A DNA stretch of 60,867 nt from the IMG/VR virus record IMGVR_UViG_3300017989_000014, positions 1 through 60,867 of that record, one strand, 5' to 3'. The notes under the pieces are model-generated. The model searched no databases. It saw only the letters and a program-made list of their open reading frames with translations, and was not told the origin of the DNA. Shown here one piece after another: positions 30,670 through 51,456 of this stretch; within the stretch, counting starts at the first letter, position 1, and the number at the start of each line of letters is the position of its first letter. The DNA comes from a virus. Lineage: Duplodnaviria > Caudoviricetes. The position numbers and the translations under genes were made by a program.

Positions 30670-31032
30670 TTATGCGTCCTCTGGGTCTACGAAGTCGGTC
30701 CTGATAGGCTGACTTACTAGTTGCGCTCCTGAAGAATCGACGATAGGGATGCCAGTCGTGGTCGTGAGGATGAATTGCGTGTACTCGAACTCCGGGTCGG
30801 TGATCGGCGCGATCTCGTCGATTGGAGTGGTGGTGACGGTCTTGTCGTACAGCGTGACATTATCCTCGGCCACGCCGATCAGCCCCATCTCTGTCAGGTC
30901 CGACACCAGCAGGGCTCGGTCTTCCGTAGGCCCGCGCTCGCCGAACAGGACCTCAAGGCGCTCACGCATTGCCTCCAGGATGTCCCTGAGGTTCTTGTCC
31001 TCGATTCGCTGCGGTGACGGTATCCTTCTCAC
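30670..31032 (-). CDS. Tail-associated hypothetical protein
   Basis: L..MRERLEVL.GERG...DRA....DL pattern, located after the tail nozzle gene. Confidence 0.55.
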   Translation of the reverse strand: MRRIPSPQRIEDKNLRDILEAMRERLEVLFGERGPTEDRALLVSDLTEMGLIGVAEDNVTLYDKTVTTTPIDEIAPITDPEFEYTQFILTTTTGIPIVDSSGAQLVSQPIRTDFVDPEDA

Positions 31033-32966
31033 AGGTCCCTCATGCTCGTGCTCATGGTAATCTCGATGATCTCGTATTGCGACTCGACCTCAACCGACCA
31101 GCGGCGCTCGTCACGCTTCACTGGGATACGCTTGGCCCGCTCGCTGGTGAACGTATGCGTCCACACGAGGTCCTCCTCGGCGTAGATACGAAAGATGACG
31201 GGATAGCCCTCGGCCTTCACCTGGGCAACGGAGAAGGAACCAGTCCTGGCATAGAGGAACTGCTTGCTCCTCCATGTGGCCGTCAGAGGGTTGCTACCCT
31301 GGTTCCAGGCAGTGAGCTTCCCATCTTGGATCAGGTAAAGCGTGTCGTCTTCCAGGTTCGCGTGCCCGCCTGTAGCGAGTTGATCGGTTGTGACTAGCGC
31401 TCGCCCGCCAGCCGACGGATCGAATATCAGCGCTGTGCCGTCCGTGAACCAGCAGTGGTATCGGTTGTCATGCGCCTTGGCTATCATCGTCGCAGGATCA
31501 AGCGCCTTCCACTGTTTCTTCGAGTAGAACGACGTCGTGAGCACTTGGCTGTTCGCCCCATTCACGGCAATTAAACCGTCCGGACTTGCGTATATTACCA
31601 AGGCCGCAGCGATATCACCGAACGTAACTACAGACCTCTTGGCCGAACACGCCTGCCTGGAGTTGCTTCGGTCGACGCTCATGTACAGCGGGTCATTCCC
31701 GGTGATGAAATGCGGATGTCCAGTCGTAAGCACGATGACCTGATTCAGCGTGTACGCAATCGCCACGATGTCCTCGTCAATCGTCTTGGCGTAGTCATCC
31801 GGCCATGCGTGCGGGCGGTTCGGCTCCGAGAAGTACACCGTCTTGCCGACGAACCCGGCCATCACTCCGTTCGTGCATTCAATCAGGCCGGTCAGGTCGT
31901 CTGGAGGCCCTTCCCAATCCACGGACGGCAGGATCTCGTTGACGTCAGCGTCCAGGGTTGTGTCTAGATACGACGTCGTCCCGATATCCAGCTCGGTAAT
32001 GAAGAAGTAGGACGTCCCGCTGGTACCAGTCACCGTCCTGTACACCCTGATGTTCGTGATGTTGTAGTCGCCAGTTGGCGCGCCAGGGATATTCGTGAGC
32101 TGGCAATCCTCCGTAGGCTGGATGGCAACCACGGTGGACGGGTCGGAAGGAGGCCCTTCCTCTCCGAAGGCCGAGACATACGTCAGGACGTACGTGCGGT
32201 CTGCGGTGTAGTCAGAGGCCCGGGAGGTGTCGAAAGACAGCCTGAGGCGCGCTGAGGGGTCACCAGACGCCGGATAGCCGATCTTGCCGGTCACCCTGGC
32301 TCCGTTCAGGTAGAAATCGGTGTTCGCTGCGTATACGGAGTTGCTCGGGTAGCACGCACCGAGGTACACGCCCGTCTCGCTGTATGCCTGGAACCACATC
32401 ATGAAGTTGGCGTCGTCGGTGGCGGTCGTCTTCGCCGGGAGCGTCTCGATCTTGAATACCGATAGCTGCGACTGCTGGAAGACAGTCTCTCCGCCGTACT
32501 CGCCCTCTGTCAGGTCTCCCTCCTGGGACACCGTCCCGTCCTCTTCTTCATAAAAATAATACCACGTGCGGGTCCAGGTCGTCTCCAGTGCGTCCACGGC
32601 TTCCACCGTAGGGGGAGAAGCGGGGGCCGGGATGCCAAGCGTGTACTCGACCTCGTTGCCGTCCAGGATGCCACGGACCTTCGGGACTCCGTCCCCGGTG
32701 TAGTAGATTCGGTCGTAGAGGTCCTCAGCGACGGGGCTTTTCACCACATCGACATCCGTTGCCCACTCCAGCCAGTTGCCGTTGTACGGGAAGACTGACA
32801 CCGTGTCGGACTGCAAGTCCTGGATCTCGTTCGGCTCATCGAAAGGAAGGACGGTACCGCCCCAGATATATGCGTTCTCTGCCGTCTGCGCCTGACTGGC
32901 ACCGAGCAAGTTCGGTGCGGCCCGTGGAAGCAGTCCTTCGAATATGCTGATCTTGATCTTAGACAC
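31029..32966 (-). CDS. Tail tubular / nozzle (packaged DNA stabilisation) protein
   Basis: FEGLLPR..P.LL....AQ.A.N, YVLTYVSAFGEEGPPS, FSEP.RPHAWP, YASPDGL, WRSKQF. Confidence 0.75.
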   Translation of the reverse strand: MSKIKISIFEGLLPRAAPNLLGASQAQTAENAYIWGGTVLPFDEPNEIQDLQSDTVSVFPYNGNWLEWATDVDVVKSPVAEDLYDRIYYTGDGVPKVRGILDGNEVEYTLGIPAPASPPTVEAVDALETTWTRTWYYFYEEEDGTVSQEGDLTEGEYGGETVFQQSQLSVFKIETLPAKTTATDDANFMMWFQAYSETGVYLGACYPSNSVYAANTDFYLNGARVTGKIGYPASGDPSARLRLSFDTSRASDYTADRTYVLTYVSAFGEEGPPSDPSTVVAIQPTEDCQLTNIPGAPTGDYNITNIRVYRTVTGTSGTSYFFITELDIGTTSYLDTTLDADVNEILPSVDWEGPPDDLTGLIECTNGVMAGFVGKTVYFSEPNRPHAWPDDYAKTIDEDIVAIAYTLNQVIVLTTGHPHFITGNDPLYMSVDRSNSRQACSAKRSVVTFGDIAAALVIYASPDGLIAVNGANSQVLTTSFYSKKQWKALDPATMIAKAHDNRYHCWFTDGTALIFDPSAGGRALVTTDQLATGGHANLEDDTLYLIQDGKLTAWNQGSNPLTATWRSKQFLYARTGSFSVAQVKAEGYPVIFRIYAEEDLVWTHTFTSERAKRIPVKRDERRWSVEVESQYEIIEITMSTSMRDL

Positions 32967-33723
32967 GTGGACACTCCATCGTTACAACGTCAACGTGGTG
33001 CTGGTGAAGGTGCCACGCCCGGTTCAACCCATGCCAAATCCACATCGGGCATGTTTCGTCTGCGCAGAGCTTCAGCCCCAGTAGCATCGAGTGTTTCCAT
33101 ATCGGATCTGCGACGAGATGGGCAACGAACTCGCAGCACGTCTTCTTCAGCGGGCTCTTGCTCTTGAGGGGCATCCCGCGTCCCCACAGCAGGAAGAAAA
33201 GGTTGTGGACGAGCTGCACGGACGCATACTCCGTTGTGCCGGTCTCGCTCATCGCGACATCAAGCGCATGCTGCGCTTGCCCTGGCCACGGCGGTACCCT
33301 CCGGATTGCCAACCTCCGGCCAGTTTCATGGCAGTAGTGGACTTGCTCGCCGTCGGCATTCTTCGCCCGGGCCCAGTCAATCAGCTCGCCAATCGGGATT
33401 GGCCCGCGCACGCCGCGATGCCCGGTGATCGGGTCCTTCTTCATCCAGCTCTCGAAGTAGTAGCTGCCAGCCTCGATCTCCACGCCGTTTACGACCACGT
33501 CCTGGTAGATGTCGAAGATCACCCCGACATGGCTGAAGCGATGAGAGATCCCGTCACCGGAAACCCACGGGGCCTCTGGCAGCAGTTGCTCTTTGCCCTT
33601 CTTCTTCAGCGCCGTAGATTTGCGCTTCAATATCTCCTGCGCAATCGAGATAGAACCTGACGTCAATCCAGGCTGAGACGTCCAGAAGAGCCTCATCTCG
33701 ACATGCGTGTCCTTGGGAGTCAT
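32959..33723 (-). CDS. Permuted papain-like (YiiX/YebB-type NlpC/P60) amidase
   Basis: FSHVGV...YYFES upstream of KTCCEFVA (His before Cys). Confidence 0.6.
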   Translation of the reverse strand: MTPKDTHVEMRLFWTSQPGLTSGSISIAQEILKRKSTALKKKGKEQLLPEAPWVSGDGISHRFSHVGVIFDIYQDVVVNGVEIEAGSYYFESWMKKDPITGHRGVRGPIPIGELIDWARAKNADGEQVHYCHETGRRLAIRRVPPWPGQAQHALDVAMSETGTTEYASVQLVHNLFFLLWGRGMPLKSKSPLKKTCCEFVAHLVADPIWKHSMLLGLKLCADETCPMWIWHGLNRAWHLHQHHVDVVTMECPRV

Positions 33724-34154
33724 GGCAGTATCGGGCCTTTCGCAATCTCGTGGATGAGTTTAACGATTCCCCCGACGATCACAGCGACCGTCCCTACGAT
33801 AATCATCACGGCCGAAGCCCGCTTGACGAAATTATTCGCCTCAGCCATCCAGTCGACATCCCTCCTCGGGCGATTGGAGTTCGCAGGATTCGTAGCTACA
33901 GCGGCACGGATAACTCCGATTTCCTCTGAATTCGCTCCAGTCTGCTTTTCGACACGCTCGAAACGCTCGTCACAGTGAGCACGATGACTCTTTGTCTCTG
34001 CCGCAATTACCGCCAGCTTCTTGTCAAATTCCGCATCGGCCTTCTGCTGCGCCTCATGGTTCGCTTGACCTTCTTTCCTGGTCTCTCGGACCTCCGTCAA
34101 GATCGTGTTGAACAGCAGCTTCGTGGAATCATCAAGGCCGTCAGTTGCACTCAT
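33720..34154 (-). CDS. Coiled-coil protein with C-terminal transmembrane helix (holin-like)
   Basis: H...C.ERF..VE coil and AVMIIVGTVAVIVGGIV. Confidence 0.5.
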   Translation of the reverse strand: MSATDGLDDSTKLLFNTILTEVRETRKEGQANHEAQQKADAEFDKKLAVIAAETKSHRAHCDERFERVEKQTGANSEEIGVIRAAVATNPANSNRPRRDVDWMAEANNFVKRASAVMIIVGTVAVIVGGIVKLIHEIAKGPILP

Positions 34155-34591
34155 GCGTCATATACCTCATCGATCCGCCCATCGAATTTGCACTCCAGCA
34201 AGAACGTACGTTCAGCTTCGCTCTGGATGGCGTGGCGCTGCTGGCCGAACTGGTCCGCCCACCACCAACCATCCTCTTCCCACATCACCCCAGTGTGACC
34301 CGTATACGTCTTCACCACACCTTGAGAAGTCTCTACCACCACTGTCGGCTCCAGCGGTACGACGTGAACCACTTTCGCCGGGATACCGAGCCGGCCGAAC
34401 ACTTCGCACAAGGCGTCACGATAGGCCCAGCACCGGTCTGCGGTACGGCCCTGGCTAGACCACACAGGCCACGCCTTCTCACGCAGGAGCGCGGCAGCGT
34501 GTGCACCCGTTTCGGCTTCCTTGACTACGTCGGCAATCGACCAGCCGTTAAAGAACCGTCGGAACCAGGTTTTCAGTGACTCCCACATCAC
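34151..34591 (-). CDS. Transglutaminase-like Cys protease fold protein
   Basis: RCWAYRDAL...GIPAKVV...GHTGV...WWWAD (Cys-His-Asp order). Confidence 0.55.
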   Translation of the reverse strand: MMWESLKTWFRRFFNGWSIADVVKEAETGAHAAALLREKAWPVWSSQGRTADRCWAYRDALCEVFGRLGIPAKVVHVVPLEPTVVVETSQGVVKTYTGHTGVMWEEDGWWWADQFGQQRHAIQSEAERTFLLECKFDGRIDEVYDA

Positions 34592-35223
34592 GTACCACCA
34601 TTTGCTTCCAGGTATTCGCGGATGGCCCTGATGTCATCCTCGTCCAGCGCCATATCGTCGAGCATGTTGAACAGGGACAGGCTTATCAGCAGGTTGAACT
34701 TACCTGCCGCGTCCAGGGTGTCGTTGTCCACCTGCTCCAGCAGGCTTGCTTTGACCCCGTTGAATGTCCACGGCGGGGTGAACCCGAGCGCGATCAGGTG
34801 ACGGCGCAGGAGCTTGACGCAGATAGCGATGGATGGGTCAGCGGCATACGCAGCAATCTGCGCTTCCCTCGCTGCAATAGCAGCAGCCTCCGCCTCGGCA
34901 GCGGCAGCGGCAGCAGCGGCATCCTCGTCAGCGATGCTGACGGTGTCCGTGATGGCGATAGCAGCCGTACCATTGCTGAGTACCCATGCTGTGGACACCA
35001 CACGATACCCATCGGCAGGCTGATGCCGTACCACCGTATACCAGCCGGGAGCCGGGTTATCCACCGTGTAGCCTGTCGTCTCTCCCTGACTACGTGGCGG
35101 GATGCGTGGGTAGTCCTCGGCAATGGGGAGGAGGACAGGTTCTGGCTCACCGTCAGGCCAGTACACCCAGTCGGCTGCAGCTACGGAAAGCGTCATTGCC
35201 AGTAGTGCGAGCAGGTACTTCAT
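34588..35223 (-). CDS. Signal-peptide protein, tail-assembly-like
   Basis: MKYLLALLAMTLSVAAA followed by D; poly-Ala helix. Confidence 0.65.
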   Translation of the reverse strand: MKYLLALLAMTLSVAAADWVYWPDGEPEPVLLPIAEDYPRIPPRSQGETTGYTVDNPAPGWYTVVRHQPADGYRVVSTAWVLSNGTAAIAITDTVSIADEDAAAAAAAAEAEAAAIAAREAQIAAYAADPSIAICVKLLRRHLIALGFTPPWTFNGVKASLLEQVDNDTLDAAGKFNLLISLSLFNMLDDMALDEDDIRAIREYLEANGGT

Positions 35224-35232
35224 CGGTTCTCC

Positions 35233-36390
35233 TTAGTCCACTGTGTAGGTGATGAGCGTGTCACGGAGGTTGTCATCCATCATCGTGATGAACGAGTTGC
35301 TGTAGATATTCCCTGTATACCAGCACTCGTCGATGCTGTACGGAGTGGTGGCTTCTCCGTTGTTGTTGGCTATGTAGACAGGAAGGTTGTTCGTCTCCAT
35401 CGATTGAGAATCGGTGTTGGTGTCATCTGACGTCCCGTTGAGCCACACTTCCGCAGCATACGCAGTGCCGTTAGACCTATAGGAACAAGCTCCGTATAGC
35501 CACACCTCATTGCCAACGGTGTCTGAGTCTTGTACGAGGTAATCGTTTGCGTTTGCCAATACCGCAGTACGCAGCCTGTCTGTCCCGCTTACATCACGCT
35601 GCGTCAATAGCCATTCGCTGTTGTCGTTGCTGCCTTCCCACTTATCGATCATGCGGATGGAGCCGTTAGGGTCGCTATCGAAATATACACACCCTATAGC
35701 CAGCACTCCGTCAGCACCCGAATGAATCGCAGGGTCAGCCACAGACACGTACTGGCTCTCCGTATCCGTGAAATGACTCGCAGTATTCTCGCAACCCTCG
35801 ATGCCATTGGTCAGCGTCACGTTCGCACTGCCACCTACGCACGTCTGTCGGTTCACTGTACTGTCGAACTGCGTCACGGTATTGAAGCCCATGTGGTAAA
35901 CGCTGATCCACTCGGTCCACACGTTGGTGGCTACGTCAGAGTGCAGCCCGCCGAGATTGCTGTTATCATCACCGCTCGCGTTCCATGACAGAGACAACAC
36001 TGTATCTGTAGCGTTGCTGATCGACTGCACACCAACCCACATGCCAGCACACTCCTCCGTCGCGTTGTAGTACTCCATCTCAATAGGGAGACTCGTACCA
36101 TCCTGCGTGACCGAGAGCTTATTGCTGTTCTCGCCAAGATCGTCGAATACCACGGTGACATCGGTACCGCTGATGCCTACGCTCGTACCCAAACACACCC
36201 GTATAGGAATCACGCCAGTCTGGTCTAACGATATGAGGTCGCTGTCCAGCGTCAGCGTCAGGCTCCCGCTACCACCGGGTGTAGCCTCCTCCGCAATCGC
36301 CTGACCGGCGATAATCTTACGCAACCCGCTTCGCGCCTGCCCGTAGGCAATACCAGCAATCAACAGCAGTACCAGCGTCAGTTTCCTCAT
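35233..36390 (-). CDS. Signal-peptide protein with DUF2341-like and LamG/concanavalin-like domains
   Basis: MRKLTLVLLLIAGIAYG followed by Q; LPIEMEYY...WV.V..IS...DT, VW.....VYHM...DST, IDE strand. Confidence 0.65.
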   Translation of the reverse strand: MRKLTLVLLLIAGIAYGQARSGLRKIIAGQAIAEEATPGGSGSLTLTLDSDLISLDQTGVIPIRVCLGTSVGISGTDVTVVFDDLGENSNKLSVTQDGTSLPIEMEYYNATEECAGMWVGVQSISNATDTVLSLSWNASGDDNSNLGGLHSDVATNVWTEWISVYHMGFNTVTQFDSTVNRQTCVGGSANVTLTNGIEGCENTASHFTDTESQYVSVADPAIHSGADGVLAIGCVYFDSDPNGSIRMIDKWEGSNDNSEWLLTQRDVSGTDRLRTAVLANANDYLVQDSDTVGNEVWLYGACSYRSNGTAYAAEVWLNGTSDDTNTDSQSMETNNLPVYIANNNGEATTPYSIDECWYTGNIYSNSFITMMDDNLRDTLITYTVD

Positions 36391-39300
36391 GGGCTCACCT
36401 GATTGATGTACCAGTTCGTCTCACCGAACTCGCTCCAGATAGCAATCGTGCTGTAGTAAGCGTTCGACAGGCTGATGCCACGGTAGGCATCGTTCGTCTG
36501 GAACGTCGTGCCGAGGCCAGTCCACGTCACCGTGTTGCTCGCACGCAATCCGAACCAGATCTCCTGCTGCTCGCCAGTGTTCCCAGGCTCGATGGCAATG
36601 GTCACTACGCCAGTGGCGAAATGCGCCTGCCACAGCCCGTTCGTCGGGTCTAGCGTGATGCTCGCCGCTGCCGCGATTTCATACGGTGCGTGACCTGCCT
36701 GATCGTACATATTGTCCAGCGCCGTCACCTGCGTCTGGAGCGCACTCGTCGAGGTGTTCAGCGTCGTGATGCCGTTGGTTGCCGTGAACAGGTTGCTCAA
36801 CTCGTCGGCTACGTTCGTGCTCCCTGCCAGGAGCGTGTCACTCTCTACCCTTGCGAAATCGCCTGTCGTGGCAGCAACCCTATCACCATTGGCCGTGTTG
36901 TATGTTATGTCACCAGTGAAACTGATCGTGCCGCTCTGGAACTCATGGGCCAACCCGTTTACGATGAGGTTCGTCTTCACGGTCACCTGCGACTCGCTCG
37001 CGTTGAGCCCGTCACCCGTGAACCCGCCACTGAAGCTCGGCGTCTGCGGGAAGTCCACGTTACCACTGATCTGCGCAGCCTCGAAATGGTCAACGTTCGT
37101 GATGTTGTTTCCGGTCATGTCCAGCGCCCCAGACATCGAGCCACCGTTCACATTTACATAGTCGCCAGTCGCGCCGTTCAGGATACCGATAGCCTGCATC
37201 ACATTGGTGCCGTAAATGTTGGGGTCAGCGTCGAAGTGCCACTCGGCACTCACGGTATTCGTGGTTGTCCATGTGTTGCCCAGTCCAACGTAGGCGTAGT
37301 CATTTGTCTGCCCTTCCAGCCCGCTCACCGTGGTCTGCAACGCTGCCGTGCTGGTATTGAGTGTACCGATTGCAGAAGCAATGTTGGTGCCATGAACGTC
37401 GATACCTGTCTCGGCGTCCAGTTCGATGTACCTGCTCGGGGCATCCTCGCCTGCTACGTCGTACAGGTACATCTCACCAGCCCGATTAGCATTGAGACCG
37501 ACTGTCCAGTGGTTTGTCGTTGTGTCTACGCTGAAACCTTCTACCGCAGATGTGTCATCGTACATCTCGATGCGTAGATCGGACTGGTTCGTGATTACGA
37601 GGTCAGCAGTATCGCCGCTCATGACAAGGTCGCCGGTCATCGTATCGCCAGCCTTCGCAACTTTCGCATCCACCTGTGTCTGCAACGCTGCCGTGCTGGT
37701 GTTGAGCGGGTCGATCCAGTCGCCCTTCAAGTCGTTGGTCGCACCGTCCACATACGCCTTCGACGCATAGATGCCAGCCTGCTCCAGATTCGGCGTGTCG
37801 AGGTGGGTACTGTAAGCCTCGGTACCGCCCTGCACGTACAGGTCAGCCGATACACCGCCGCTGCGGAGCGCGTAGTAGGCTACACCGAGGTAGCTCGTCG
37901 CCGTGACGGTGATGTTCGTCTCCAGATAGATCGAGTCGTCGTATTCTGTGAGCGCAGAACTCAGTAGCCTGATGGTGCTGCGCTTGATCTCGTTGCTCGA
38001 TCCTGTCGTACCGTATACGAGCGCAACCTGCCCGCTGATCGTCGGCCCGCCAATACTGTCGTAGCCAATCCAGTAGTCCATGTTGTAGAGCCCCGCCGGG
38101 ATAGTGACGTTCGCTCCTACTGCGTTCGTCCAGTACCAGTAGCCGATGAGGTTCGTGCCTGTGGAGAGCGCGTTCGTCACAGCCCACAACCCTGCCGCTG
38201 GCAGACTACCTTCCAGTGCCGATGCGCCAGTGATGACAGGATGCGCGTTCGTCGTGCCGAATAGGCGCAAGGACGAGAACTGGCCGAACAAGTCGATGAC
38301 ATCACCGTACCGCATTGCATCGTCGAGATCATACGGAGCACCCTCTTCCAGATGCACCTCGTCGGCGTAGAGCGTCGCAACGTTCGTGATGATGTTCGCG
38401 CCCATATTGACATCGCCTGCAAAAGTATCGCCGTTGATGTTTGCGTAGTCGTTCGTCTGGCTAATCAGTTGCACCGCGTCATTAGTTGCCTGATCCCAAT
38501 CGAGACTGCGCTGGCCGTACAGGTCGGCTGCGGCAGGCGCATGCTCAAGATGGATCTTGACCTGACCCTCGGTCGCATGCACGTACTCTACAATACCAAT
38601 GTGCTCGGCATACTCGCCGCTCGCACCGTCAGGTGCCACGTTCGTGATGACACCCGCCTCGGTCGGATGGAGGTACAGCTTATCGCCTACAGCCCAGTTG
38701 CTCGTATCAATGTCATGAACCGCACCGGCCACCGTGACGTAACCGAACTGGTTATTCGCGATGTTACTGCTGGTCACCAGCCCGTATACTGTCGCGTTCG
38801 TTACTGCATCACCAACCGCCAACTGTACTTCTGGCGCATGGGCAGCACCGCCAGAGATCCGTACCGCCATACCGTTAGTGAGCGTGTCGCCATTCGTGTT
38901 CTTCACACGCCTGACAAGCTCCTGCCCAATCTGCACAGTCACGTCGGCATCGTCGTTGTAGTAGGCAAACGCATGGTGGTCAGGATCGTAGAACATGGTG
39001 CCTTCTTCGTGTGTCGGATCAGATCCGATCAAGTTGAATATGATCCTGCCGTCACCGTTTATCTCTACGCCCTGTGTCCCGTTCGTATCGTTGACAGTGA
39101 TCTTGCCACCCTGCGCTCCGCTATCGGAACCGATGAACACTACCGCATCAGCAGTCTCGTCGTTTAGGACGCGCATGGCAGTCTCGTCGGCAGGAATCAT
39201 CACGTCGATCTGCGTCGTGTTCGTCACGAATATGCGCCCGCCACTCACCTCGATGCCGTCCTCGAAATAGTTGGTGGTTGCCCATTTGTTCAAGTCGTTC

Positions 39301-41768
39301 GTGCTCACACCGGAGATCCCGGCGATCTCCTCCATGACGTTCGTCCCGCCTACGAGGATGTCCGTGTTGAAGTACACTGTGTTATCGAACTCGTTCGACG
39401 GGCCGGTGAAGTGGTTGTACGCCGCTAGGTTCACGCTGCCGGTCGGGCTAAGTGCGTCGATCTGCACCTGCAAGGCGTTCGTGCCGGTCACCAGTTCATC
39501 CAGGCGCGTGGTCACGTTCGTGGTGCCAACAATAAGCTCATTCGTGACAACGACATTGCCGTCTGCCTGCAACACCATGATCGTGTCGTTCGCCGTCTTG
39601 AAGTAAATGTTGCCAGTCTCGTTATCCGAATCCGAGATACCGAAGTTTACGTCGCTGTTGCCGTAGGTGAACGCGAACACATCGTTCCCGGTCTGGTCAA
39701 GGAAGGCGATGGCGAAGTCCGCAGCACCGTTGGTGTCGCTGCTGTCGTACATATACAACTGCGGGAAAGCGTCCACTATCGACAGATCCTCGGTAGGATT
39801 GTTCGTGCCGATACCGACATCACCAGATCCGTCTACATACAAGCCCTCGTTCACGTTCTCGTCACCGTTGATCCAGTTACCGTTCAGGTTAATGAGCCCC
39901 TGCATCAACAGTTCGCCAGCGTTCACCATGCCGCTGAACTCACCACCAACCATGTTCGTCACATCACCAACCGTCTGGCCGTCGATGTCACCGAAGATCG
40001 TGATCGTCCCGGCACCGGCGATGTTGCCAACGTTCATGTTCAGGTTGGCTGTTGCAGCACCACCCTTGAAGGTCACGTCGTTGGAGAATATCGTATCACC
40101 GAAGAACGTGTTCGTGCTCGCGGCAGTGAACACGTTGGGCTGGTTCGTGTAGACCTCTGTCCCGCCAGCGAGCGTCAGCAGGTTCGTGGTCCCTGCATAA
40201 ATCGAACCGCCAACGTTCAGCTCTCCGGTGAAGTGGCCGTCGATGAAGTTCGTGACATTCGCGCTCGACTCACCGTCCACCTCTACACCAACGCCGACCG
40301 TCTCCGTATCAACAAGGTTGGCCCATATCGTGGCGTCCGTTGCGTCGATATTCCCGACATCAACGATGACCCCACCAACGACGTGCAGGTTGTCCTGCGG
40401 ATCGTTTGTGCCGATACCCACGTTGCCGTTGTACAGGGTCGTAGTGTTGAACGTGTTCGTAGCAGTGAACGTCTGGTTGCTCGCCAGGAAGGCAGTACCA
40501 CTCGCGCCGGGGATCGCCGTGATCTGGGTCTGTAGCGCGTTCGTGGACGCAACCCACACCTCGTAGTCCATCAGGTCGCCCGAGTTGACAGAGGGGCCTG
40601 CCCAGCGGTCGCGCCACACCTGCATCTCGTCGGGCTCTCCCACTACGCACTCGTATCGGAAGTCGTCAGACCATGCGATACCCTCTCCCTGCGTGAAAGC
40701 ATTCGTCTGTCGCTGGAGGATGTTGCCAGTCACCGGGTCGAACTCGAACACGAGAGGCGTAGCATCGCTGATGCAGAAGAACCGCCCGTCAACGATCTCG
40801 ATGTCGGATAGGTCATCTACGACATTCGACCACACCGCCTCTGCGTCGAACGGCTCGGTCATCGTGAGCTTGTTGCTGGCTGCTACGAGTCCGATCTCGA
40901 AGAACCGCATCGCGTTATCGCCAGGGTCCTCGCCCTCTTGCACGCCGTACCACTTGTCGGCGTTCTCGTCGTAGGCAATACCTTCAAGGCCGTCGGTCGC
41001 GTTGCTGGGTGCGTTCTGGTCAAAGGTCCACTGGGTGAAGTCAGCATCGTCGATGGTCGTCGTGTTCGTATCGATCCCGATGAAGTAGATGCCCTGCGGA
41101 ACTCCGCTGTCGTCGTATCCGCCCTCTTCGCAGATCGCGAAGTTCGTGCCACCGTACCACTCGATGCCTTCCAGGTCCTTGAACCCAGTCAGCGTTACGC
41201 GCTGCTGCAAGGTGTTGTCCGGCTCGAATCGGTGCGCGTAGACGTACTTCGTCTGGTTGAAGTTGTTCTCCATCCACCAGAACATTCTCCTGTTCTGGTC
41301 CCAGGTCACGGCACCAACGTTATCGATCTCCGGGTCAGCCGCGTAATCTGAGGCGTTGACGATGTCTTCGAGGTCGTTCGTGAGGTAGGCATCGCCCATC
41401 GTCTCCAGGGTGTAGCGATTCCCGGTGGCTCGGACCCACGTGCCTGCACCAGTAACGTCGTTGGTGCAGACCCACTGGTAATTGCGCTCTGACCCGTCCA
41501 CAAACCGGATGATCGAGTTCGTGACCACGAACGGGCCATTCGTAAACCCGACTTCTCCATCCACGTACAGCTTGCCGTGTACAATACCCCCGTCCCAGGT
41601 CGATACGAGGCTGTCGCGGTGGTCCTTCGGCGAGATGTCCTGCGTTACGTTATCCTGTAGCAGCGTCAGCGTAGTGTCGCGATCACGGATCGTGGCATTT
41701 GTCTGCCCGTAGGCTGAGCCAACAACCAGCCACAGGGCGAGAGCGGTCATAAAAATACGGCTGGCCAT
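36387..41768 (-). CDS. Large signal-peptide tail fibre/adhesin (1793 aa) with SdiA-regulated/YjiK-like propeller and fibre repeats
   Basis: MASRIFMTALALWLVVGSAYG followed by Q; DLEGI, GLEGIAYD, DLSDI, QGEGIA blades; GNVGIGT..P, KAGDTMTG and LNTST.ALQ repeats. Confidence 0.75.
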   Translation of the reverse strand: MASRIFMTALALWLVVGSAYGQTNATIRDRDTTLTLLQDNVTQDISPKDHRDSLVSTWDGGIVHGKLYVDGEVGFTNGPFVVTNSIIRFVDGSERNYQWVCTNDVTGAGTWVRATGNRYTLETMGDAYLTNDLEDIVNASDYAADPEIDNVGAVTWDQNRRMFWWMENNFNQTKYVYAHRFEPDNTLQQRVTLTGFKDLEGIEWYGGTNFAICEEGGYDDSGVPQGIYFIGIDTNTTTIDDADFTQWTFDQNAPSNATDGLEGIAYDENADKWYGVQEGEDPGDNAMRFFEIGLVAASNKLTMTEPFDAEAVWSNVVDDLSDIEIVDGRFFCISDATPLVFEFDPVTGNILQRQTNAFTQGEGIAWSDDFRYECVVGEPDEMQVWRDRWAGPSVNSGDLMDYEVWVASTNALQTQITAIPGASGTAFLASNQTFTATNTFNTTTLYNGNVGIGTNDPQDNLHVVGGVIVDVGNIDATDATIWANLVDTETVGVGVEVDGESSANVTNFIDGHFTGELNVGGSIYAGTTNLLTLAGGTEVYTNQPNVFTAASTNTFFGDTIFSNDVTFKGGAATANLNMNVGNIAGAGTITIFGDIDGQTVGDVTNMVGGEFSGMVNAGELLMQGLINLNGNWINGDENVNEGLYVDGSGDVGIGTNNPTEDLSIVDAFPQLYMYDSSDTNGAADFAIAFLDQTGNDVFAFTYGNSDVNFGISDSDNETGNIYFKTANDTIMVLQADGNVVVTNELIVGTTNVTTRLDELVTGTNALQVQIDALSPTGSVNLAAYNHFTGPSNEFDNTVYFNTDILVGGTNVMEEIAGISGVSTNDLNKWATTNYFEDGIEVSGGRIFVTNTTQIDVMIPADETAMRVLNDETADAVVFIGSDSGAQGGKITVNDTNGTQGVEINGDGRIIFNLIGSDPTHEEGTMFYDPDHHAFAYYNDDADVTVQIGQELVRRVKNTNGDTLTNGMAVRISGGAAHAPEVQLAVGDAVTNATVYGLVTSSNIANNQFGYVTVAGAVHDIDTSNWAVGDKLYLHPTEAGVITNVAPDGASGEYAEHIGIVEYVHATEGQVKIHLEHAPAAADLYGQRSLDWDQATNDAVQLISQTNDYANINGDTFAGDVNMGANIITNVATLYADEVHLEEGAPYDLDDAMRYGDVIDLFGQFSSLRLFGTTNAHPVITGASALEGSLPAAGLWAVTNALSTGTNLIGYWYWTNAVGANVTIPAGLYNMDYWIGYDSIGGPTISGQVALVYGTTGSSNEIKRSTIRLLSSALTEYDDSIYLETNITVTATSYLGVAYYALRSGGVSADLYVQGGTEAYSTHLDTPNLEQAGIYASKAYVDGATNDLKGDWIDPLNTSTAALQTQVDAKVAKAGDTMTGDLVMSGDTADLVITNQSDLRIEMYDDTSAVEGFSVDTTTNHWTVGLNANRAGEMYLYDVAGEDAPSRYIELDAETGIDVHGTNIASAIGTLNTSTAALQTTVSGLEGQTNDYAYVGLGNTWTTTNTVSAEWHFDADPNIYGTNVMQAIGILNGATGDYVNVNGGSMSGALDMTGNNITNVDHFEAAQISGNVDFPQTPSFSGGFTGDGLNASESQVTVKTNLIVNGLAHEFQSGTISFTGDITYNTANGDRVAATTGDFARVESDTLLAGSTNVADELSNLFTATNGITTLNTSTSALQTQVTALDNMYDQAGHAPYEIAAAASITLDPTNGLWQAHFATGVVTIAIEPGNTGEQQEIWFGLRASNTVTWTGLGTTFQTNDAYRGISLSNAYYSTIAIWSEFGETNWYINQVSP

Positions 41769-41778
41769 TTGGTTCTCC

Positions 41779-42243
41779 TTACTGCTCCGCAGGCAAGACT
41801 CCGTTGTCGGTCAGGACCTCTTTCCAGTCATCGCCGGTCTGGAGGATGAATGATGCCTTGTCCACGCGGCCGGTGATCGCGTTGCGGCGTGCCTGTAACT
41901 TCGCCTTGTTTGCGTCCCACCACATCTGAAAATGCGCGTTGCTCAACCGTCGGGCACCGGTACGCCCGAGCCACTTCGCGCAGAAGTGCTTCGTGTAGAA
42001 CACGGCGTAGTAGACAACCGTGTTCGTGTCAGCAGCGAGGCTCCCCTCCTGGTAGTACTTCCACGGGTCGTTGTCCAACGTCTCGCTCGTTTTGAGGAGC
42101 GAACGCAGGCCGGTCTTCAGCTTCGTTCGCGTCGCGGCGTCAAGGTCGTCCTTCTGGATGCCGACTACCACGTACTTCGGGAATGCCAGGACCGAGACCA
42201 CTGCCAGAATCCAAATCAGGAATGCCATCTTCTTCATCGTCAT
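41779..42243 (-). CDS. Signal-peptide hypothetical protein
   Basis: (MT)MKKMAFLIWILAVVSVLA followed by F; AAGGAG SD. Confidence 0.65.
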   Translation of the reverse strand: MTMKKMAFLIWILAVVSVLAFPKYVVVGIQKDDLDAATRTKLKTGLRSLLKTSETLDNDPWKYYQEGSLAADTNTVVYYAVFYTKHFCAKWLGRTGARRLSNAHFQMWWDANKAKLQARRNAITGRVDKASFILQTGDDWKEVLTDNGVLPAEQ

Positions 42244-42247
42244 CTCC

Positions 42248-43696
42248 TTAAAGACCGAACCCGCCGTCGGTATTTTCCTGGGCGAAGACTGCGGCGACCT
42301 CACCAGTAGTAAGCGCTCGGTTCCACAACTGCGGTCGAGCAAGCCACCCGTTCCATGCCAGATACCCATCGCCGCTATTAAAGTAACTGCTGAACGTCAT
42401 CTTCGTCCACGCAGACGCACCGTTGGTGTCTGCGTTGATCCAGCTACCGTGGTTGCTGCCGCTCGTGACGGTCCAGGTGCTCTGCGTACCGTTGATGTAG
42501 GTCACGTAAGACGAGCCGTCCGCTGTGAACGCCAGGTGGTACCAGGTGTTCGTCGTGAGCGCATCTCCGGCAGGTGCCTGGATGGCGCAGTAGCTGGAGA
42601 TGGTCCGGCAAGTGAGGTACGGGCGTGCCGCATTGATGCCGAAACCGAGGTGGCGGTCGCCGTCGCTCGTCGGAGGGGCCATGCCGAAAACATCGTGCTC
42701 CCCAACCCCGTCGTCAGTGCTGTATGCCCAGCAGGCAAACGTACCCTCAGACGAAGCCTTGATCGCGCCGTAATCGTTCGTCGTGGCCAGCAGATGATCG
42801 TTGTTGCCATCGAACTCGAAGGCGTTCCAGGCGATCCCGGCGTCGTTGCTGGACACGAACAACGGCTCCGCACTCGTGCCCTGGTTGATCGAAGCGTGAT
42901 CCTCATACGGGCTTGTGTCAGCAGTCGTACCTGCGGTCGGGTTGTTCGTTGCGTCGAACGTGTACCGGCGCAGCACCTTCGTCCACCAGGGGTACGAGGC
43001 GCTGAGTGACGTAGCGTTCGTCCACGCACCTCCGGTTGCCGTGACAGACCAGTTGCTGCCGTTGAGAGCTACAATGTCGGCACCTGCCGCGTTCGTTGCG
43101 TCACTCGATGCCGGGGCACCGTCAGCCAACAGGCCCGCACCAGGAATGATGAGCGCGTCGGTAGATGCAGGAGTGATCTGCAACACCTGCTGGTAGGCCG
43201 TGTTACGGACTGAAATCGAACGGCCCGCTACAGCGTCCGGCAACTCGATCTCCGTGGCACCGTCGTAGGTGACATTGAACACCGTGCCGAAGGTATCGTT
43301 CGTCGTGGCGGTGATGCCTGCGGCTGGGATCGAACGAACCGTAAGCGTCGGGTCGTACGGCGTGATCCCGCTCACCTGGGACTGAAGTGCAGACGTGCTC
43401 GTGTTGAGAGTCGTCACATCAGTCGTCAGGTTATTCGTGGCGGTAGAGAGCGACGAGACATCCGACACAAGACCGTTCGTCGCGGCCGCGAGATTCCCGA
43501 TCTCGTCGGCTACATTCGTCGTTCCTGTCAGGAGCGAGCCGATCGTCTTCTGGCCGGAGATCACCTGGGCAGTATCGAGCGTCACGAAGTTGTTCGTAGG
43601 GATCGTCGTCCCAACATCCGTGCGCTCGCCATTCACGTACACGCCAGCGAAGGCGGTGGACGCGGCAAGAAGCAGTCCAACTGTAAGAAAACGCAT
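42248..43696 (-). CDS. Signal-peptide fibre protein with C-terminal LamG domain
   Basis: MRFLTVGLLLAASTAFA followed by G; coiled segment; AFEFDGNND...TFACW...WYHLAFT.DG...YING...LWNRALT..EV. Confidence 0.8.
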   Translation of the reverse strand: MRFLTVGLLLAASTAFAGVYVNGERTDVGTTIPTNNFVTLDTAQVISGQKTIGSLLTGTTNVADEIGNLAAATNGLVSDVSSLSTATNNLTTDVTTLNTSTSALQSQVSGITPYDPTLTVRSIPAAGITATTNDTFGTVFNVTYDGATEIELPDAVAGRSISVRNTAYQQVLQITPASTDALIIPGAGLLADGAPASSDATNAAGADIVALNGSNWSVTATGGAWTNATSLSASYPWWTKVLRRYTFDATNNPTAGTTADTSPYEDHASINQGTSAEPLFVSSNDAGIAWNAFEFDGNNDHLLATTNDYGAIKASSEGTFACWAYSTDDGVGEHDVFGMAPPTSDGDRHLGFGINAARPYLTCRTISSYCAIQAPAGDALTTNTWYHLAFTADGSSYVTYINGTQSTWTVTSGSNHGSWINADTNGASAWTKMTFSSYFNSGDGYLAWNGWLARPQLWNRALTTGEVAAVFAQENTDGGFGL

Positions 43697-43706
43697 AGCT
43701 TTTCCC

Positions 43707-44099
43707 TTACTGAAGCGACTTCGCAAACGTCACGAAAGCCGTGTTCGTATCCGTGTTCTCGATAATCAACACACCGTTCTCGCAGACGGGGATCTTCCCG
43801 CCGTTTGACTCGAACAAGAACGTCACCATTGCCGCGTCATTGTCTGTAGACACGGTGTTCGTGTACGTGTGCTGGACCGCGCCGTTGGTGTAGATGTTCT
43901 CGACGGTGTACACGGTCGTCGTGTTCGCTGTGCCTGCAGGGAACGTGACCATGATGCTCTCGATCGAAACCTTGTACCCGCCACTGTTCGTCCAGGCTAC
44001 AGTGCCATTCATCGGCGTCTTCCATACGGAATCCAGCGGCCCGGCAAGGCACAAGCTAGCCGCGCAGGCGATTGCGGCGATGATAACGAGCTTCTTCAT
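43707..44099 (-). CDS. Signal-peptide beta-rich protein
   Basis: MKKLVIIAAIACAASLCLA followed by G. Confidence 0.7.
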   Translation of the reverse strand: MKKLVIIAAIACAASLCLAGPLDSVWKTPMNGTVAWTNSGGYKVSIESIMVTFPAGTANTTTVYTVENIYTNGAVQHTYTNTVSTDNDAAMVTFLFESNGGKIPVCENGVLIIENTDTNTAFVTFAKSLQ

Positions 44100-44108
44100 G
44101 TTCTCTCC

Positions 44109-45221
44109 TTAGTGTTTGATGATGAAGTTCACGTAGACATTCTTCGGGCGAGTCTCGTTCGTGGTTGTAGAGGAGGCTGCACCCGGCGGGAAACTCATCT
44201 GCGTCGTCGTCTGCGTATCGTCTGCGCTCTGCCCTCTATGCTCAAGGTAGGTGTCTGTTCCATCGGACGACTGAGCGGTTGGGAACGTGTGATTGTGTGC
44301 CTGAACGCTGTCTACCTGACGGCTACCTACGTTATCGCCCGAGTTGCCATCGCCTGTGTTCTTGAGGCGGTCAGCAGCGTCAGGGTCGCGGCCCTGGCCG
44401 TTGTCCCATCCGCGCAAGAAGTAGCCGCGAAGATCAGGCACTCGGAACTTGCCTGCCGCAATGTTGAAGCCGAAGTTCGTGCCGATCGTGAAGTAGAGGT
44501 TTGAATATACACCGTTCGTTTCGTACCCGGTTCCGTCACAGAAAAGGAATCCGCTCGGCGCGTTACTCATCGAGCCCCATGGAAGGATCGTGCCCGCAGG
44601 CACGACATTCGTGTCGAACCCTGGCCAGGAATCCCGCGCTACACCACCAAGCGTGATGCTGTTGCTTACGGTGAGGTTCGAAGCGACGACGAGGCTATCC
44701 TGACACTCGGCATAGTAGAAGCTCTGCGTGGTACCCGTCTTGTAGACGATCGTCTGTGTGTTCGTAACGACCCGCAGGATCTCGGATGAGTCGGCGCTCT
44801 GGATTACACCAGTACCGCCTTTCGACTGGTCCCACAGCGGGTTCCAGTAATCCGCCTTGGGCGCGCCAGTAACGATTCCAGAGCCCTGGAATACCGTGAA
44901 GTATCCTGCATCGACTCCACCGTTCACTGTCACGGTGACGCCGTTCGAGATGTCAAAGTATGTGTCCGCAGCGAACACGAGGTGAAGGTTGGTGGGGAAG
45001 GTAACGCTCTTATCGACATCCCAGCGACCGCCATCGATGACGACGTACGAGAACCTGTCTCCCATCCTGTCCACAAAATTGGTCAGCGTTGTCCCGTTGA
45101 GACTGCTGCCATATTGCGCTGCGAACACACGGTAAAAACTACGCTTCACCGACTGCGAGTACACGAGCACCGCTGAACACATCAGGAAGATCGTGTATAC
45201 GATTATGGCTTTCTTGAACAT
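44109..45221 (-). CDS. Tail fibre with phage tail-collar domain and N-terminal signal peptide
   Basis: MFKKAIIVYTIFLMCSAVLVYS followed by Q; VPAGTILPW...PSGFLFCDG...FRVPDLRGYFLRGWD...HNH...ETRPKNVYVNFIIK; AGGAG SD. Confidence 0.88.
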   Translation of the reverse strand: MFKKAIIVYTIFLMCSAVLVYSQSVKRSFYRVFAAQYGSSLNGTTLTNFVDRMGDRFSYVVIDGGRWDVDKSVTFPTNLHLVFAADTYFDISNGVTVTVNGGVDAGYFTVFQGSGIVTGAPKADYWNPLWDQSKGGTGVIQSADSSEILRVVTNTQTIVYKTGTTQSFYYAECQDSLVVASNLTVSNSITLGGVARDSWPGFDTNVVPAGTILPWGSMSNAPSGFLFCDGTGYETNGVYSNLYFTIGTNFGFNIAAGKFRVPDLRGYFLRGWDNGQGRDPDAADRLKNTGDGNSGDNVGSRQVDSVQAHNHTFPTAQSSDGTDTYLEHRGQSADDTQTTTQMSFPPGAASSTTTNETRPKNVYVNFIIKH

Positions 45222-45229
45222 GTCTCCTC

Positions 45230-45856
45230 CTAAGAGCCGAGCGTGATGGCGTCGGTGATGTAAACGCGCCCGTCGACCTCGATGGCCAGATACCACGTGG
45301 TCGAAGAGCCCGTGTGAGTTATTGAGTGCGAGTATGCCCCAGACGAATCCGTGATGACCGTCCATTCAACGCTCGTGTCTCCGCCTGTTGGGACCGACAA
45401 TGTGACATCGTTCGGGTTCGTGTTGTCGTCGATGAGCCACATCCGCAAAGAGGTGTACGTGAGGTTGTCCGGGTGATCGTTTACCTGGATGGATATCGTG
45501 GCCGTGTTACTCACCACGCTAGGTGTGCCAAGGGTTAGGTTCGGCAGCGCGGCCAGCTCAAGCAGCAGAGCCCTGGTGACCCACATCTCTACGCGGTCGC
45601 CGTCGCAGAAGGTGTTGGCAATAGTGCCATCGGCTGCTCGCTCGATCGTCGCGACCTTGGTCGTTGCGTCGAACGCTGTCACCTTCACGATCTCCTTCGT
45701 GGCGTCCGTTGCTCGGACCAACACGAGGTAGAAGTAGTCGTCGTTCGTGATCGTTGGCCATCCGGACACGCTTGAGACCGTCATCGTGAGGTCAGTGTCC
45801 GTGATGTCTCCATCCAGCGTCGTCCGGATGTAGTTTGCAGGCAACGGTGCGTACAT
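45230..45856 (-). CDS. Tail protein / fibre adaptor
   Basis: N..RTTL...I...D....V, EIVKVTA...TIERA.DGT....F..GDRVE. Confidence 0.65.
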   Translation of the reverse strand: MYAPLPANYIRTTLDGDITDTDLTMTVSSVSGWPTITNDDYFYLVLVRATDATKEIVKVTAFDATTKVATIERAADGTIANTFCDGDRVEMWVTRALLLELAALPNLTLGTPSVVSNTATISIQVNDHPDNLTYTSLRMWLIDDNTNPNDVTLSVPTGGDTSVEWTVITDSSGAYSHSITHTGSSTTWYLAIEVDGRVYITDAITLGS

Positions 45857-45867
45857 GATCGAGTCTC

Positions 45868-46140
45868 CTATCCGATGTCAAAGCCGGAGTCGTATCCGCT
45901 GTCGTAGGCACCACCAGGGGTGTATGCCCCGCCGTGTAGCGGGTAGTCACCGATAACTGGACTGAATGCCGCGACGTCAGTCGTCTTCGAGTCATCCTGA
46001 AACACGATGAAAGCGCGGTTGATTCTAAACTGGTCGGCCGACACTGACGCAGTGAGCTTCGTCCCCTGGCTGATCTTCTGGCAATGGCTACTGCCGGAGG
46101 AACTCGTCGAACAACTACCGGTGTTGCACGTACTGCTCAT
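45868..46140 (-). CDS. Hypothetical virion-region protein
   Basis: 90-aa ORF in the operon, ATGA-coupled; C-terminal YDSGYDSGFDIG. Confidence 0.5.
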   Translation of the reverse strand: MSSTCNTGSCSTSSSGSSHCQKISQGTKLTASVSADQFRINRAFIVFQDDSKTTDVAAFSPVIGDYPLHGGAYTPGGAYDSGYDSGFDIG

Positions 46141-46484
46141 GATGCTTCCGCAAACTGCTCGTAGACCCGAAAAGACTGTTTATCCAGAACCGTCTGTGCT
46201 CCCGATGAGAACGTGATGATTATCTGCCCCTCGTAACGACCCGGGGTCAGGTCCTCCAGGCCGTCAGATGGCCAGGAGAGCCGCACGTAGCCGGTCTCGC
46301 CTTCGTCGACCTTCGTCATGGCCTGCTCGAAGAGCGTCGTTGCAGAGCCTTTCATGCGAAAGCGGAACGCCAGGGTGGTGTTGCTCCCGGACACATCGAC
46401 GGGCTCATCGTTCGAATCGTTCTTCAGTTGAAAGATAACGTCAGGGAGTGTGTCGTTCGCTACGACGCGGATAAGTGAACTCAT
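46137..46484 (-). CDS. BppU-N-like tail adaptor (115 aa)
   Basis: NDT.P...F.L.....PVD.SG...G.V...W....L...G.YEG.I.ITF.SG..TV. Confidence 0.65.
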   Translation of the reverse strand: MSSLIRVVANDTLPDVIFQLKNDSNDEPVDVSGSNTTLAFRFRMKGSATTLFEQAMTKVDEGETGYVRLSWPSDGLEDLTPGRYEGQIIITFSSGAQTVLDKQSFRVYEQFAEAS

Positions 46485-47104: not shown

Positions 47105-47113
47105 CTGACTCTC

Positions 47114-47452: not shown

Positions 47453-47470
47453 CGCTGGCCTCTCCAGTCC

Positions 47471-47839: not shown

Positions 47840-47913
47840 GTCGCTTCCTCTTTCGTGTTGTGTCCCCCGGGGCGGAGTAAACCACCCCGGGGCACTTTGT
47901 CGTCAAAGCCCGA

Positions 47914-50676: not shown

Positions 50677-51456
50677 TTACTTCACGCCGATGGCAATCCA
50701 ATTGCACGTCAGGCCGTTCGCCACGTTCGTGCAAACAAAACCGGTCGTGCCCGCGCCGGCTGCATAAGCGTTCGTCCCGCCCGTAGCACCAAGTTCATCG
50801 ACCAGAACAATGGGGGTGCCGCTCGCAAAAGCGGTACCGAACGTGACCGCCTCGTCGGCCGTAGCCGTGCCGGTCTCGACACGCCAGGGCGTGTTGGACT
50901 CGGACAGGAGCATCGCGAACCCGTCGACACTCACCGTGTCGCCACTCGCCAGAGCCAGGCCGCTCGAACTGAACGTACCAACCGTAGTCTCCGTGCCAGC
51001 AACCGGTACCGCGATAGCGACCGTTGCATCCTCGGTCCCGTCCGTAACGTCCGTGGCCGTGACCGTGATCTTGCCGTAGGTGACGTTCGTAGTCGTGGCG
51101 TCGTCCGCTGCCTGGAAGTCCAGGATGAACGTCTGGTTGTCGGCCATGTTGTTCGTAAGGTTGTCCGACTCGAACACGATGCTCAGAAGATTCGAGGCAC
51201 CCGTAACAACAGTGTCCTCGATGAACTTCAGGATCTTGGCCGTGTCGTTGTCCTGCACCATGCCGTTCGCCATCGTGATGTCGCCACCGATGGTCAGGCC
51301 ACCGGTCTGCGTCACATCGCCAACCTGCGTCAGCGTGCCGTTGTTGACAATGCTCGACTCGATAGTCAACTCGCCAACACTGAACTGCTCGCGGTCGTTA
51401 CCGAACGCGCACGTCGCAATGAGGCCCACCAGGGCCATCGCTACCCATTTCTTCAT
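50677..51456 (-). CDS. Signal-peptide beta-rich virion-like protein
   Basis: MKKWVAMALVGLIATCAFG followed by N; C-terminal VTFGTAF...P.V...TTGF...NWIAIG fibre-tip (gp53-like) pattern. Confidence 0.7.
   Translation of the reverse strand: MKKWVAMALVGLIATCAFGNDREQFSVGELTIESSIVNNGTLTQVGDVTQTGGLTIGGDITMANGMVQDNDTAKILKFIEDTVVTGASNLLSIVFESDNLTNNMADNQTFILDFQAADDATTTNVTYGKITVTATDVTDGTEDATVAIAVPVAGTETTVGTFSSSGLALASGDTVSVDGFAMLLSESNTPWRVETGTATADEAVTFGTAFASGTPIVLVDELGATGGTNAYAAGAGTTGFVCTNVANGLTCNWIAIGVK

Follow-up and report, generated by a model that had tools for sequence, protein, structure and literature searches.

Why would the fibre genes of a tailed phage begin with signals for export from the cytoplasm? 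The question is raised by a virus (Duplodnaviria; Caudoviricetes) represented by the IMG/VR record IMGVR_UViG_3300017989_000014, which we analysed over its whole length of 60,867 bp (hereafter the window; completeness rating 100%, with direct terminal repeats). In the stretch that separates a tail-fibre anchor gene from the gene for a conserved 645-residue virion protein, seven consecutive genes (34588..45221, minus strand) each start with what looks like a Sec-type signal peptide, and an eighth such gene lies beside the portal gene (50677-51456). These eight N-termini are very probably genuine Sec-type signal peptides cleaved by signal peptidase I, and fibre-like parts of this phage seem, judging from their sequences, to be exported from the cytoplasm, either ahead of their incorporation into the particle or in place of it. 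We regard the arrangement as a variant of phage fibre clusters or of exported fibre adhesins. The observation itself is real, non-random and conserved within a clade, and a route that takes the exported proteins into the virion is plausible.

The seven open reading frames (ORFs) are contiguous, all on the minus strand, and are separated by 4-10 nt or overlap by 4 nt (ATGA). Each product begins with one or two Lys/Arg residues, followed by a hydrophobic core of 10-16 residues and a small-residue site that reads, in gene order from 45221, VYS-Q, CLA-G, AFA-G, VLA-F, AYG-Q, AYG-Q and AAA-D. Small residues occupy positions -3 and -1 in all eight proteins once the portal-adjacent product is included. 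When 33 minus-strand genes are scored by the highest Kyte-Doolittle value of any 10-residue window close to the N-terminus, the seven reach 2.34-3.16 and the portal-adjacent product 2.74; of the remaining 25, only 46481-47104 exceeds 1.53 (at 2.17), and it lacks a basic n-region. We also applied a crude test of our own for n-, h- and c-regions, which is not SignalP, to 58 candidate genes. Ten pass, namely the seven, 50677-51456, 56916-57323 (with a lipobox) and 57274-57555 (with an N-terminal transmembrane domain), and a run of at least seven among ten positives in 58 genes arose at a frequency of 1.7e-5 in 1,000,000 shuffles. Among the flanking genes, the adaptor, the 208-residue anchor, the 645-residue protein ('nozzle/head-closure') and the giant 4324-residue protein lack such N-termini.

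Inspection, hydropathy and the n/h/c test thus uphold the first-pass annotation of this DNA, which had described basic, hydrophobic and small-residue segments at the N-termini of the seven ORFs and none in the flanking adaptor and nozzle genes. Its further expectation, that signals would be confined to the block and 50677-51456, holds in that all eight genes pass; since two genes elsewhere pass as well, signal-like N-termini are not strictly limited to this set. No lipobox occurs in the seven proteins, the sole one being that of 56916-57323 (LVIGC), and the Cys at +1 expected of Llp/Cor-type exclusion lipoproteins is accordingly missing from them. Pfam and NCBIfam searches of the seven reveal no type 9 secretion system (T9SS) or outer-membrane sorting family at E <= 0.01-0.05. 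The chains finish with H, Q, L, Q, P, D, T and K, and none has a C-terminal aromatic residue of the beta-barrel type.

Are the hydrophobic segments translated at all? The possibility that the true starts lie downstream of them finds no support, as both ribosome-binding sites and the starts of homologues back the proposed positions. AAGGAG or AGGAGG stands upstream of the starts at 45221, 44099, 41768 and 35223, a weaker ribosome-binding site (AAGGG) precedes 43696, and the start at 36390 overlaps the stop codon of the upstream gene. For the 42243 ORF the third codon, at 42237, is the better start, with AAGGAG 6 nt upstream and an Atlas record that begins there; this lies only two codons downstream, so the signal remains intact.

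The signals are also conserved beyond this genome. The sole homologue found of the 385-residue protein, P0122, is 43% identical over the full length and shares the start methionine, and 15 of the first 20 residues are the same, including the AYG-Q-type site. Residues 30-130 of the collar protein, its N-domain, recur at 33% identity in a signal-bearing 468-residue protein of G001 (L093/L203), a 36.6-kb contig with 63% capsid identity and 48% GC. In P0122, in the 468-residue protein and in the portal-adjacent family, the signal feature (hydrophobicity and cleavage-site pattern) is kept while the sequence drifts. The four DNA sources of the phage itself show zero differences in the signal-coding segments; these sources are near-identical and are therefore uninformative on constraint.

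The portal-adjacent gene (50677..51456, minus strand) extends this pattern outside the tail locus and supplies the strongest evidence for the signals. It lies between the portal and scaffold genes and encodes a signal-bearing, Thr/Gly-rich protein of 259 residues, for which no match was found in phage records. All eight clade members in which the region is visible (the window, L084-L087, L090, L093 and L096) have a signal here; L089, where the gene is absent, and L088, where the region is not covered, fall outside this count. The capsid tree places all eight loci in one clade of 11 rows (support 94/87), and the five loci whose positional analogues have no signal lie elsewhere in the tree. Across the family the hydrophobic cores diverge and Ala or Gly at -1 is retained. 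BLAST joins the window protein with those of L085, L086 and L090 (1e-6 to 1e-7), and the L087, L093 and L096 proteins are positional analogues only. In five loci the motif RE[QR]x[SNDH][VI]x[EG]L[TSK][IVL] begins 1-2 residues past the predicted cleavage site. The same 11-residue motif occupies residues 4-14 of the signal-less relatives in L100 and L165, and a six-frame search of 243 loci (5.67 million residues) finds it nowhere else. Written more loosely as RE-Q/R-x-x-V/I-x-E/G-L-x-I/V/L, it characterises the start of the portal-adjacent protein in the window and in L084-L087, L090, L100 and L165, with or without a preceding signal. This placement fits a cleavage that would expose a conserved N-terminus which the signal-less relatives expose directly. 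The predicted structure of the mature protein (6 rows) has a mean predicted local distance difference test (pLDDT) score of 38. Together, the signal-bearing gene and the post-cleavage motif provide a marker with which further such phages can be found.

What kind of proteins carry these signals? Five of the seven tail-locus products are, on our reading, fibre or lectin proteins rich in Thr/Ser/Asn/Gly, and those of 154 and 211 residues may be helper proteins. An acidic composition, low in Lys/Arg and with 36-41% Thr/Ser/Asn/Gly, characterises six of the eight signal-bearing proteins, which in this resemble the 208-residue anchor. Their mature parts contain 1-7 Cys per protein, counts that do not decide the compartment.

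The first gene (44109..45221, minus strand, like all those that follow) encodes 370 residues with the VYS-Q signal, the conserved N-domain (about residues 30-130) and a collar/HxH domain. The collar domain and HxH tip ascribed to this product at first sight are confirmed by a PF07484 score of 45 bits against a cut-off of 24, by histidines H309 and H311, nearly invariant in the alignment, and by matches in the Protein Data Bank (PDB) to the T4 gp12 chains 1ocy (3.5e-4) and 1pdi; 9cuy is matched at 4.2e-8. Its predicted structure (31 rows) has a mean pLDDT of 53, with values below 50 in the N-domain and of 81-86 over the helical residues 1-20. The next gene (43707..44099) specifies 130 residues, the CLA-G signal and a small Thr/Asn-rich domain with no family match; we found no relatives of this protein, and it gave no pairwise alignment to a 147-residue protein of G001. 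The 482-residue product of 42248..43696 combines the AFA-G signal with a fibre-type module and a C-terminal LamG domain (residues 297-468; PF13385, Laminin_G_3, 43.2 bits against a cut-off of 27.6), and its 477 library matches concern the LamG part only. Its residues 54-111 are 48% identical to residues 1645-1684 of the giant protein described below (E 6e-8), and this shared module of 58 residues suggests an exchange of modules within the block.

The fourth gene (41779..42243; VLA-F) encodes 154 residues, or more likely 152 from 42237, of ordinary basic composition and with no family match. It is followed by a giant of 1793 residues (36387..41768; AYG-Q), in which an SdiA-regulated/YjiK-type domain (residues 149-351; PF06977, 60.9 bits against a cut-off of 21) precedes a long fibre. 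Residues ~909-1143 of the giant form a tail-fibre domain that matches 14 phage records, annotated tail fibres of isolates, and its N-terminal 460 residues have no relative among proteins of 986-3138 residues. The block ends with the 385-residue protein (35233..36390; AYG-Q), whose homologue P0122 was introduced above, and a 211-residue protein (34588..35223; AAA-D) with an Ala-rich linker and ordinary composition, which gave no pairwise alignment to a 152-residue protein of G001. Atlas scores of 0.77-0.81 for the 154- and 211-residue proteins are leads at best.

The position of the block is that of a tail-fibre locus. Immediately upstream lies the signal-less 208-residue anchor gene (45230..45856), whose product joins a tail-fibre N-terminal anchor domain to an Ig-like C-terminal half. 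The N-terminus matches phrog_30299 and phrog_8469 (tail fibre N-termini), residues 8-106 match the N-termini of Bcep22 gp64/65 and of the fibre genes of L097, L101 and L118, and the C-terminal half matches a 105-residue protein of G001. Downstream, beyond three small genes, is the 645-residue conserved virion protein ('internal virion/head closure'; 31029..32966; phrog_511, 1.6e-144), which shares about 31-36% identity with the corresponding proteins of Bcep22-type, Vibrio and other phages. In Bcep22-type phages, three to four tail-fibre genes stand directly upstream of the 645-residue homologue and a giant DarB-like gene stands downstream, according to the available part of PMC9144972. This synteny supports the assignment of the seven genes to the tail region in the first-pass annotation. 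In L097 and L118 stand-alone anchor proteins are followed by signal-less distal proteins, and here the signal-bearing genes take that place. The central tail-fibre domain of the giant is likewise found in signal-less tail-locus proteins of distant relatives that have a canonical fibre N-terminus.

A similar organisation is seen in G001. The gene pair consisting of an Ig-like anchor half and then a protein with signal and conserved N-domain recurs there, and its signal-bearing genes lie after the capsid/decoration genes and before the 645-residue homologue, with another at 12729-13595 of L203. Seven of the 15 G001 ORFs upstream of the 645-residue homologue pass the crude test, and one signal-bearing G001 protein matches a PHROG annotated as a virion structural protein (2e-14). 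Signal-bearing genes directly follow the capsid/decoration genes in L084, L087, L089, L090 and L093. Locus scans with the anchor alone or the 645-residue protein alone gave no close relative, and profile scans of viral and metagenome contigs gave none beyond G001. Within the window, a consensus scan of 32000-49500 found 0 promoter-like (sigma-70-like) sites on either strand, against 6.3 +/- 2.7 in shuffles, and no minus-strand terminator-like site. With its tight spacing and no promoter or terminator, the block reads as part of a late structural transcription unit; late transcription may use another promoter type. The separate setting and own promoter and terminator of morons of the Lom/Bor type are thus not seen.

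How unusual is a signal on such proteins? Among collar-domain ORFs of IMG/VR, one of the best 80 has a signal-like start, whereas 51 of the best 120 collar-domain proteins from all metagenomes (query included) are signal-like by a hydropathy-only test, indicating that bacteria often have the signal-collar fusion and viral contigs seldom do. The premise that collar parts normally lack signals therefore stands for viral contigs but not as a general rule. The crude test is passed by 22 of the 205 upstream ORFs in 15 distant relatives reached through the 645-residue protein, and the 22 comprise one small conserved family and lysis-type genes and include no large fibre-like ORF. Our literature search turned up no description of tailed-phage fibres that bear Sec signals.

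Comparison with known systems points to several partial likenesses. The gene order of portal, capsid, adaptor-type, fibre, head-closure and giant DarB-like genes is shared with the Bcep22-type podophages (Lessievirus: Bcep22, BcepIL02, JC1), and the 208-residue anchor has the N-terminal domain of their fibres. In those phages, however, each fibre starts with the anchor domain and has no signal, whereas in this phage a single short anchor protein precedes seven genes with signals; moreover, protein identities of ~30% place this phage outside the genus, so that the likeness is one of synteny only. T4 gp12 resembles the last 170 residues of the 45221 product (PF07484, 1ocy and 1pdi), but gp12 is cytoplasmic and attached to the baseplate by its N-terminus, while the N-terminus of the 45221 product is a signal plus an unrelated domain shared only with G001. 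Bacterial collar proteins (JGI 'microcystin-dependent protein') are 35-49% identical in the collar, many with signal-like N-termini, and the match is confined to the C-terminal 45% of the 45221 product.

The MAT fibres of Bdellovibrio bacteriovorus are tail-fibre-like proteins in which a Sec signal leads into a conserved domain and the tips vary. In the available text of PMC10769870, 21 of 21 MATs carry a conserved ~130-residue domain directly after the signal peptide and are surface-located. These are chromosomal genes of a predator acting on its own surface, as far as that text describes them, unlike the present genes inside a phage late operon, and at the family level of Pfam and NCBIfam the block proteins contain no Peptidase_S74, the chaperone that most MATs have, or other MAT-shared family. 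T4 RI, T5 Llp and lambda Lom/Bor likewise come from phage genes that specify a Sec or lipoprotein signal, and some of these genes adjoin receptor-binding genes; in the accounts available they are single small exclusion or lysis-timing genes that are not fibre-like and form no 10-kb run in a structural operon.

How, then, might exported fibres serve this phage? The reading that we favour, though tentatively, is that the fibres mature in the periplasm and attach to particles when the inner membrane is breached. The seven tail-locus genes would be the distal fibre and receptor-binding set of a podophage, transcribed with the particle genes as a late unit. Their products would be exported and would fold in the periplasm, the natural compartment of LamG, YjiK-type and many collar-domain proteins. 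Particles already filled with DNA but still devoid of fibres would come within their reach only once lysis opens the cytoplasmic membrane, and docking would then take place on platforms made in the cytoplasm, the 208-residue anchor among them; the portal-adjacent protein would dock through the N-terminal motif exposed by cleavage. Holin holes are micron-sized. Lysis in three steps, with inner membrane, wall and outer membrane disrupted in turn, is described in the available text of 10.1101/2023.09.08.556860, and such stepwise lysis offers a moment for periplasmic and cytoplasmic contents to mix. Locus position, fibre modules, the pair of anchor half and N-domain protein, the lack of any other convincing large fibre and the shared motif together favour this virion route. 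At the level of the clade, it is possible, if somewhat doubtful, that the particle is made in two compartments, with capsid, tail and anchor cytoplasmic and with Sec-exported, processed and periplasm-folded receptor-binding fibres, head- or neck-associated fibre and helpers, maybe as an adaptation to Planctomycetes. Tailed-phage assembly is taught as wholly cytoplasmic, and such a clade would imply either a periplasmic branch of assembly or a large, undescribed investment of a lytic-type phage in exported fibre adhesins. If the two-compartment reading is true, phages could take up adhesin domains of secreted bacterial proteins for receptor binding. Either outcome would bear on the traffic of receptor-binding modules between phages and the secreted proteins of bacteria, and on the prediction of host range from fibre genes.

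Several observations weigh against this assembly route. None of the seven proteins has a virion-attachment N-terminal domain, the anchor domain being in the 208-residue protein and in Bcep22 gp64-66, and the signal-less 208-residue anchor or the 283-residue product of 29817-30668 could be the real receptor binders. NCBIfam, Pfam and PHROGs recognise no endolysin, holin or other lysis enzyme over the genome, which leaves the step of mixing at lysis without named machinery. Our crude test is loose, since most of its 22 passes in distant relatives fall in a small non-secretory family and lysis genes. The motif pattern was derived from the very sequences in which it was found, and homology between signal-bearing and signal-less portal-adjacent proteins gained no support from direct comparison (no BLAST match across the groups; hhalign probability 0.2%), so that the case consists of motif and gene position rather than demonstrated homology. 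We know of no tailed phage with Sec-exported virion parts. In the giant, finally, the 'TRAGKGSPLT'-type N-terminus seen in relatives of its central domain is replaced by a signal and a YjiK-type/propeller domain, a swap that would fit re-targeting away from the virion equally well.

That last point leads to the alternative in which the proteins are made late, exported and never enter the virion, acting in the periplasm, on the surface or in the medium as fibres or lectins, whether anchored or free; surface display would resemble that of the Bdellovibrio MAT fibres. There they could mask or destroy receptors, so that progeny are not lost on debris, block superinfection or make the infected cell adhesive. 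We consider this possible but doubtful. It is in keeping with the exchange of a virion-attachment N-terminus for a signal in the giant and with the signal-like starts of 51 of the best 120 collar-domain proteins noted above, and a conserved N-domain with a variable C-terminus suits any anchored fibre, whether on cell or virion. T5 Llp and lambda Lom/Bor are exported phage proteins outside the virion. A further exported non-virion phage protein is T4 RI, with a cleavable signal (PMC8385771, available text), and bacteria export phage-fibre-like trimers, as the Bdellovibrio MATs illustrate (PMC10769870, in the part available). Yet ~10.6 kb, or ~17% of the genome, in a late unit is far above what exclusion or masking genes need, and soluble proteins would be released by lysis alone, with no need of a signal. 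Nor do the seven have a lipobox, a C-terminal aromatic residue or a recognised outer-membrane or T9SS sorting domain. Both this phage and G001 would be left without a convincing large signal-less fibre, and the portal-adjacent motif is common to signal-less relatives whose partner must be cytoplasmic.

A different fate for the same N-termini is that they stay uncleaved, as signal-anchors that would keep the proteins attached to the inner membrane, on its periplasmic side, until lysis, either as a fibre store or in an envelope or lysis role. The N-termini are predicted to be helical, and in the collar model residues 1-20 have the highest confidence; some uncharged stretches extend to 19-23 residues, and VLA-F and CLA-G, with Pro as the next residue in each, depart somewhat from typical cleavage sites. 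We nevertheless judge this unlikely, given that the strongly hydrophobic cores span just 10-16 residues, that the small -3/-1 residues are found in all eight proteins and kept across the divergent portal-adjacent family, and that the motif begins at most two residues past the predicted site and corresponds to what signal-less relatives have at their free N-terminus. It is very improbable that the segments are no export signals at all, lying instead upstream of the true starts or serving as cytoplasmic docking or trimerisation helices of ordinary fibres. Tailed-phage fibres are normally cytoplasmic, which speaks for this reading, but the ribosome-binding sites sit at the proposed starts, homologues share the start methionine and type of N-terminus (at 43% and 33% identity, and in the portal-adjacent family), and a docking helix gives no reason to conserve basic n-regions and AXA-type c-regions. 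The 15 more distant relatives, moreover, contain no large fibre-like ORF with such an N-terminus.

The rest of the genome is that of a tailed phage with nearly all genes on the minus strand. The structural module includes a large terminase (53848-55380), an SU10-type portal (51481-53661), a major capsid protein (48409-49341) and an SU10-type adaptor (47114-47452), all on that strand. The nearest isolates are remote, with Rhizobium phage RHph_TM3_14A at 29.5% identity in the portal and 47% in the capsid. A 4324-residue ORF with AAA_34 and Helicase_C_4 (Strawberry-notch/Sbno-type) domains (14281-27255, minus strand) occupies the position of the Bcep22 'DarB-like antirestriction' gp75. Directly downstream of the signal block, a minus-strand gene (33720-34154) encodes a 144-residue protein with one C-terminal transmembrane segment, flanked by genes for two Trp/Cys/His-rich proteins (34151-34591 and 32959-33723). 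Neither it nor these neighbours have a family match, and a PDB search with the giant and with the 146- and 254-residue proteins returned no match. Downstream of the 645-residue gene, 29817-30668 (minus strand) specifies the signal-less 283-residue protein, with a weak OB-fold (BOF) match and an N-terminus that we take to be reminiscent of small fibre-type proteins, making it a possible receptor binder. The Pro-rich lipobox protein of 56916-57323 overlaps by 50 nt a 93-residue protein with an N-terminal transmembrane domain and a Cys-rich tail (57274-57555, both minus strand), and the two may be a spanin-like pair. A scan of the window found no tRNA. The terminal repeat is an exact 123-bp direct repeat at 1-123 and 60745-60867, which may reflect overlapping assembly of a circular or permuted genome instead of a physical end.

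A lead to the host comes from a 48.5-kb contig that is 100% identical to the window and is binned in a 10.1-Mb metagenome-assembled genome (MAG), 'uncultured Planctomycetales bacterium'; the binning evidence is weak, and Planctomycetales is a host lead only. The MAG sample has ~65% GC against 59% in the phage and contains planctomycete-type prepilin-like N-termini. A search of the MAG found no other homologue of the N-terminus of the giant or of the LamG protein. No spacer-like match to the window was found; 35-bp matches at 12575-12609 were considered as such and rejected, as they represent P-loop codons. In this same MAG (G006; contigs C77 and C271), a second contig carries a related portal fragment (74% nucleotide identity, 104 bp). 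Remoter capsid relatives occur in Methylomarinum, Methylophaga and Thiolinea MAGs, and DNA of the phage itself is present in both sediment and seawater metagenomes, with no RNA dataset listed among its sources.

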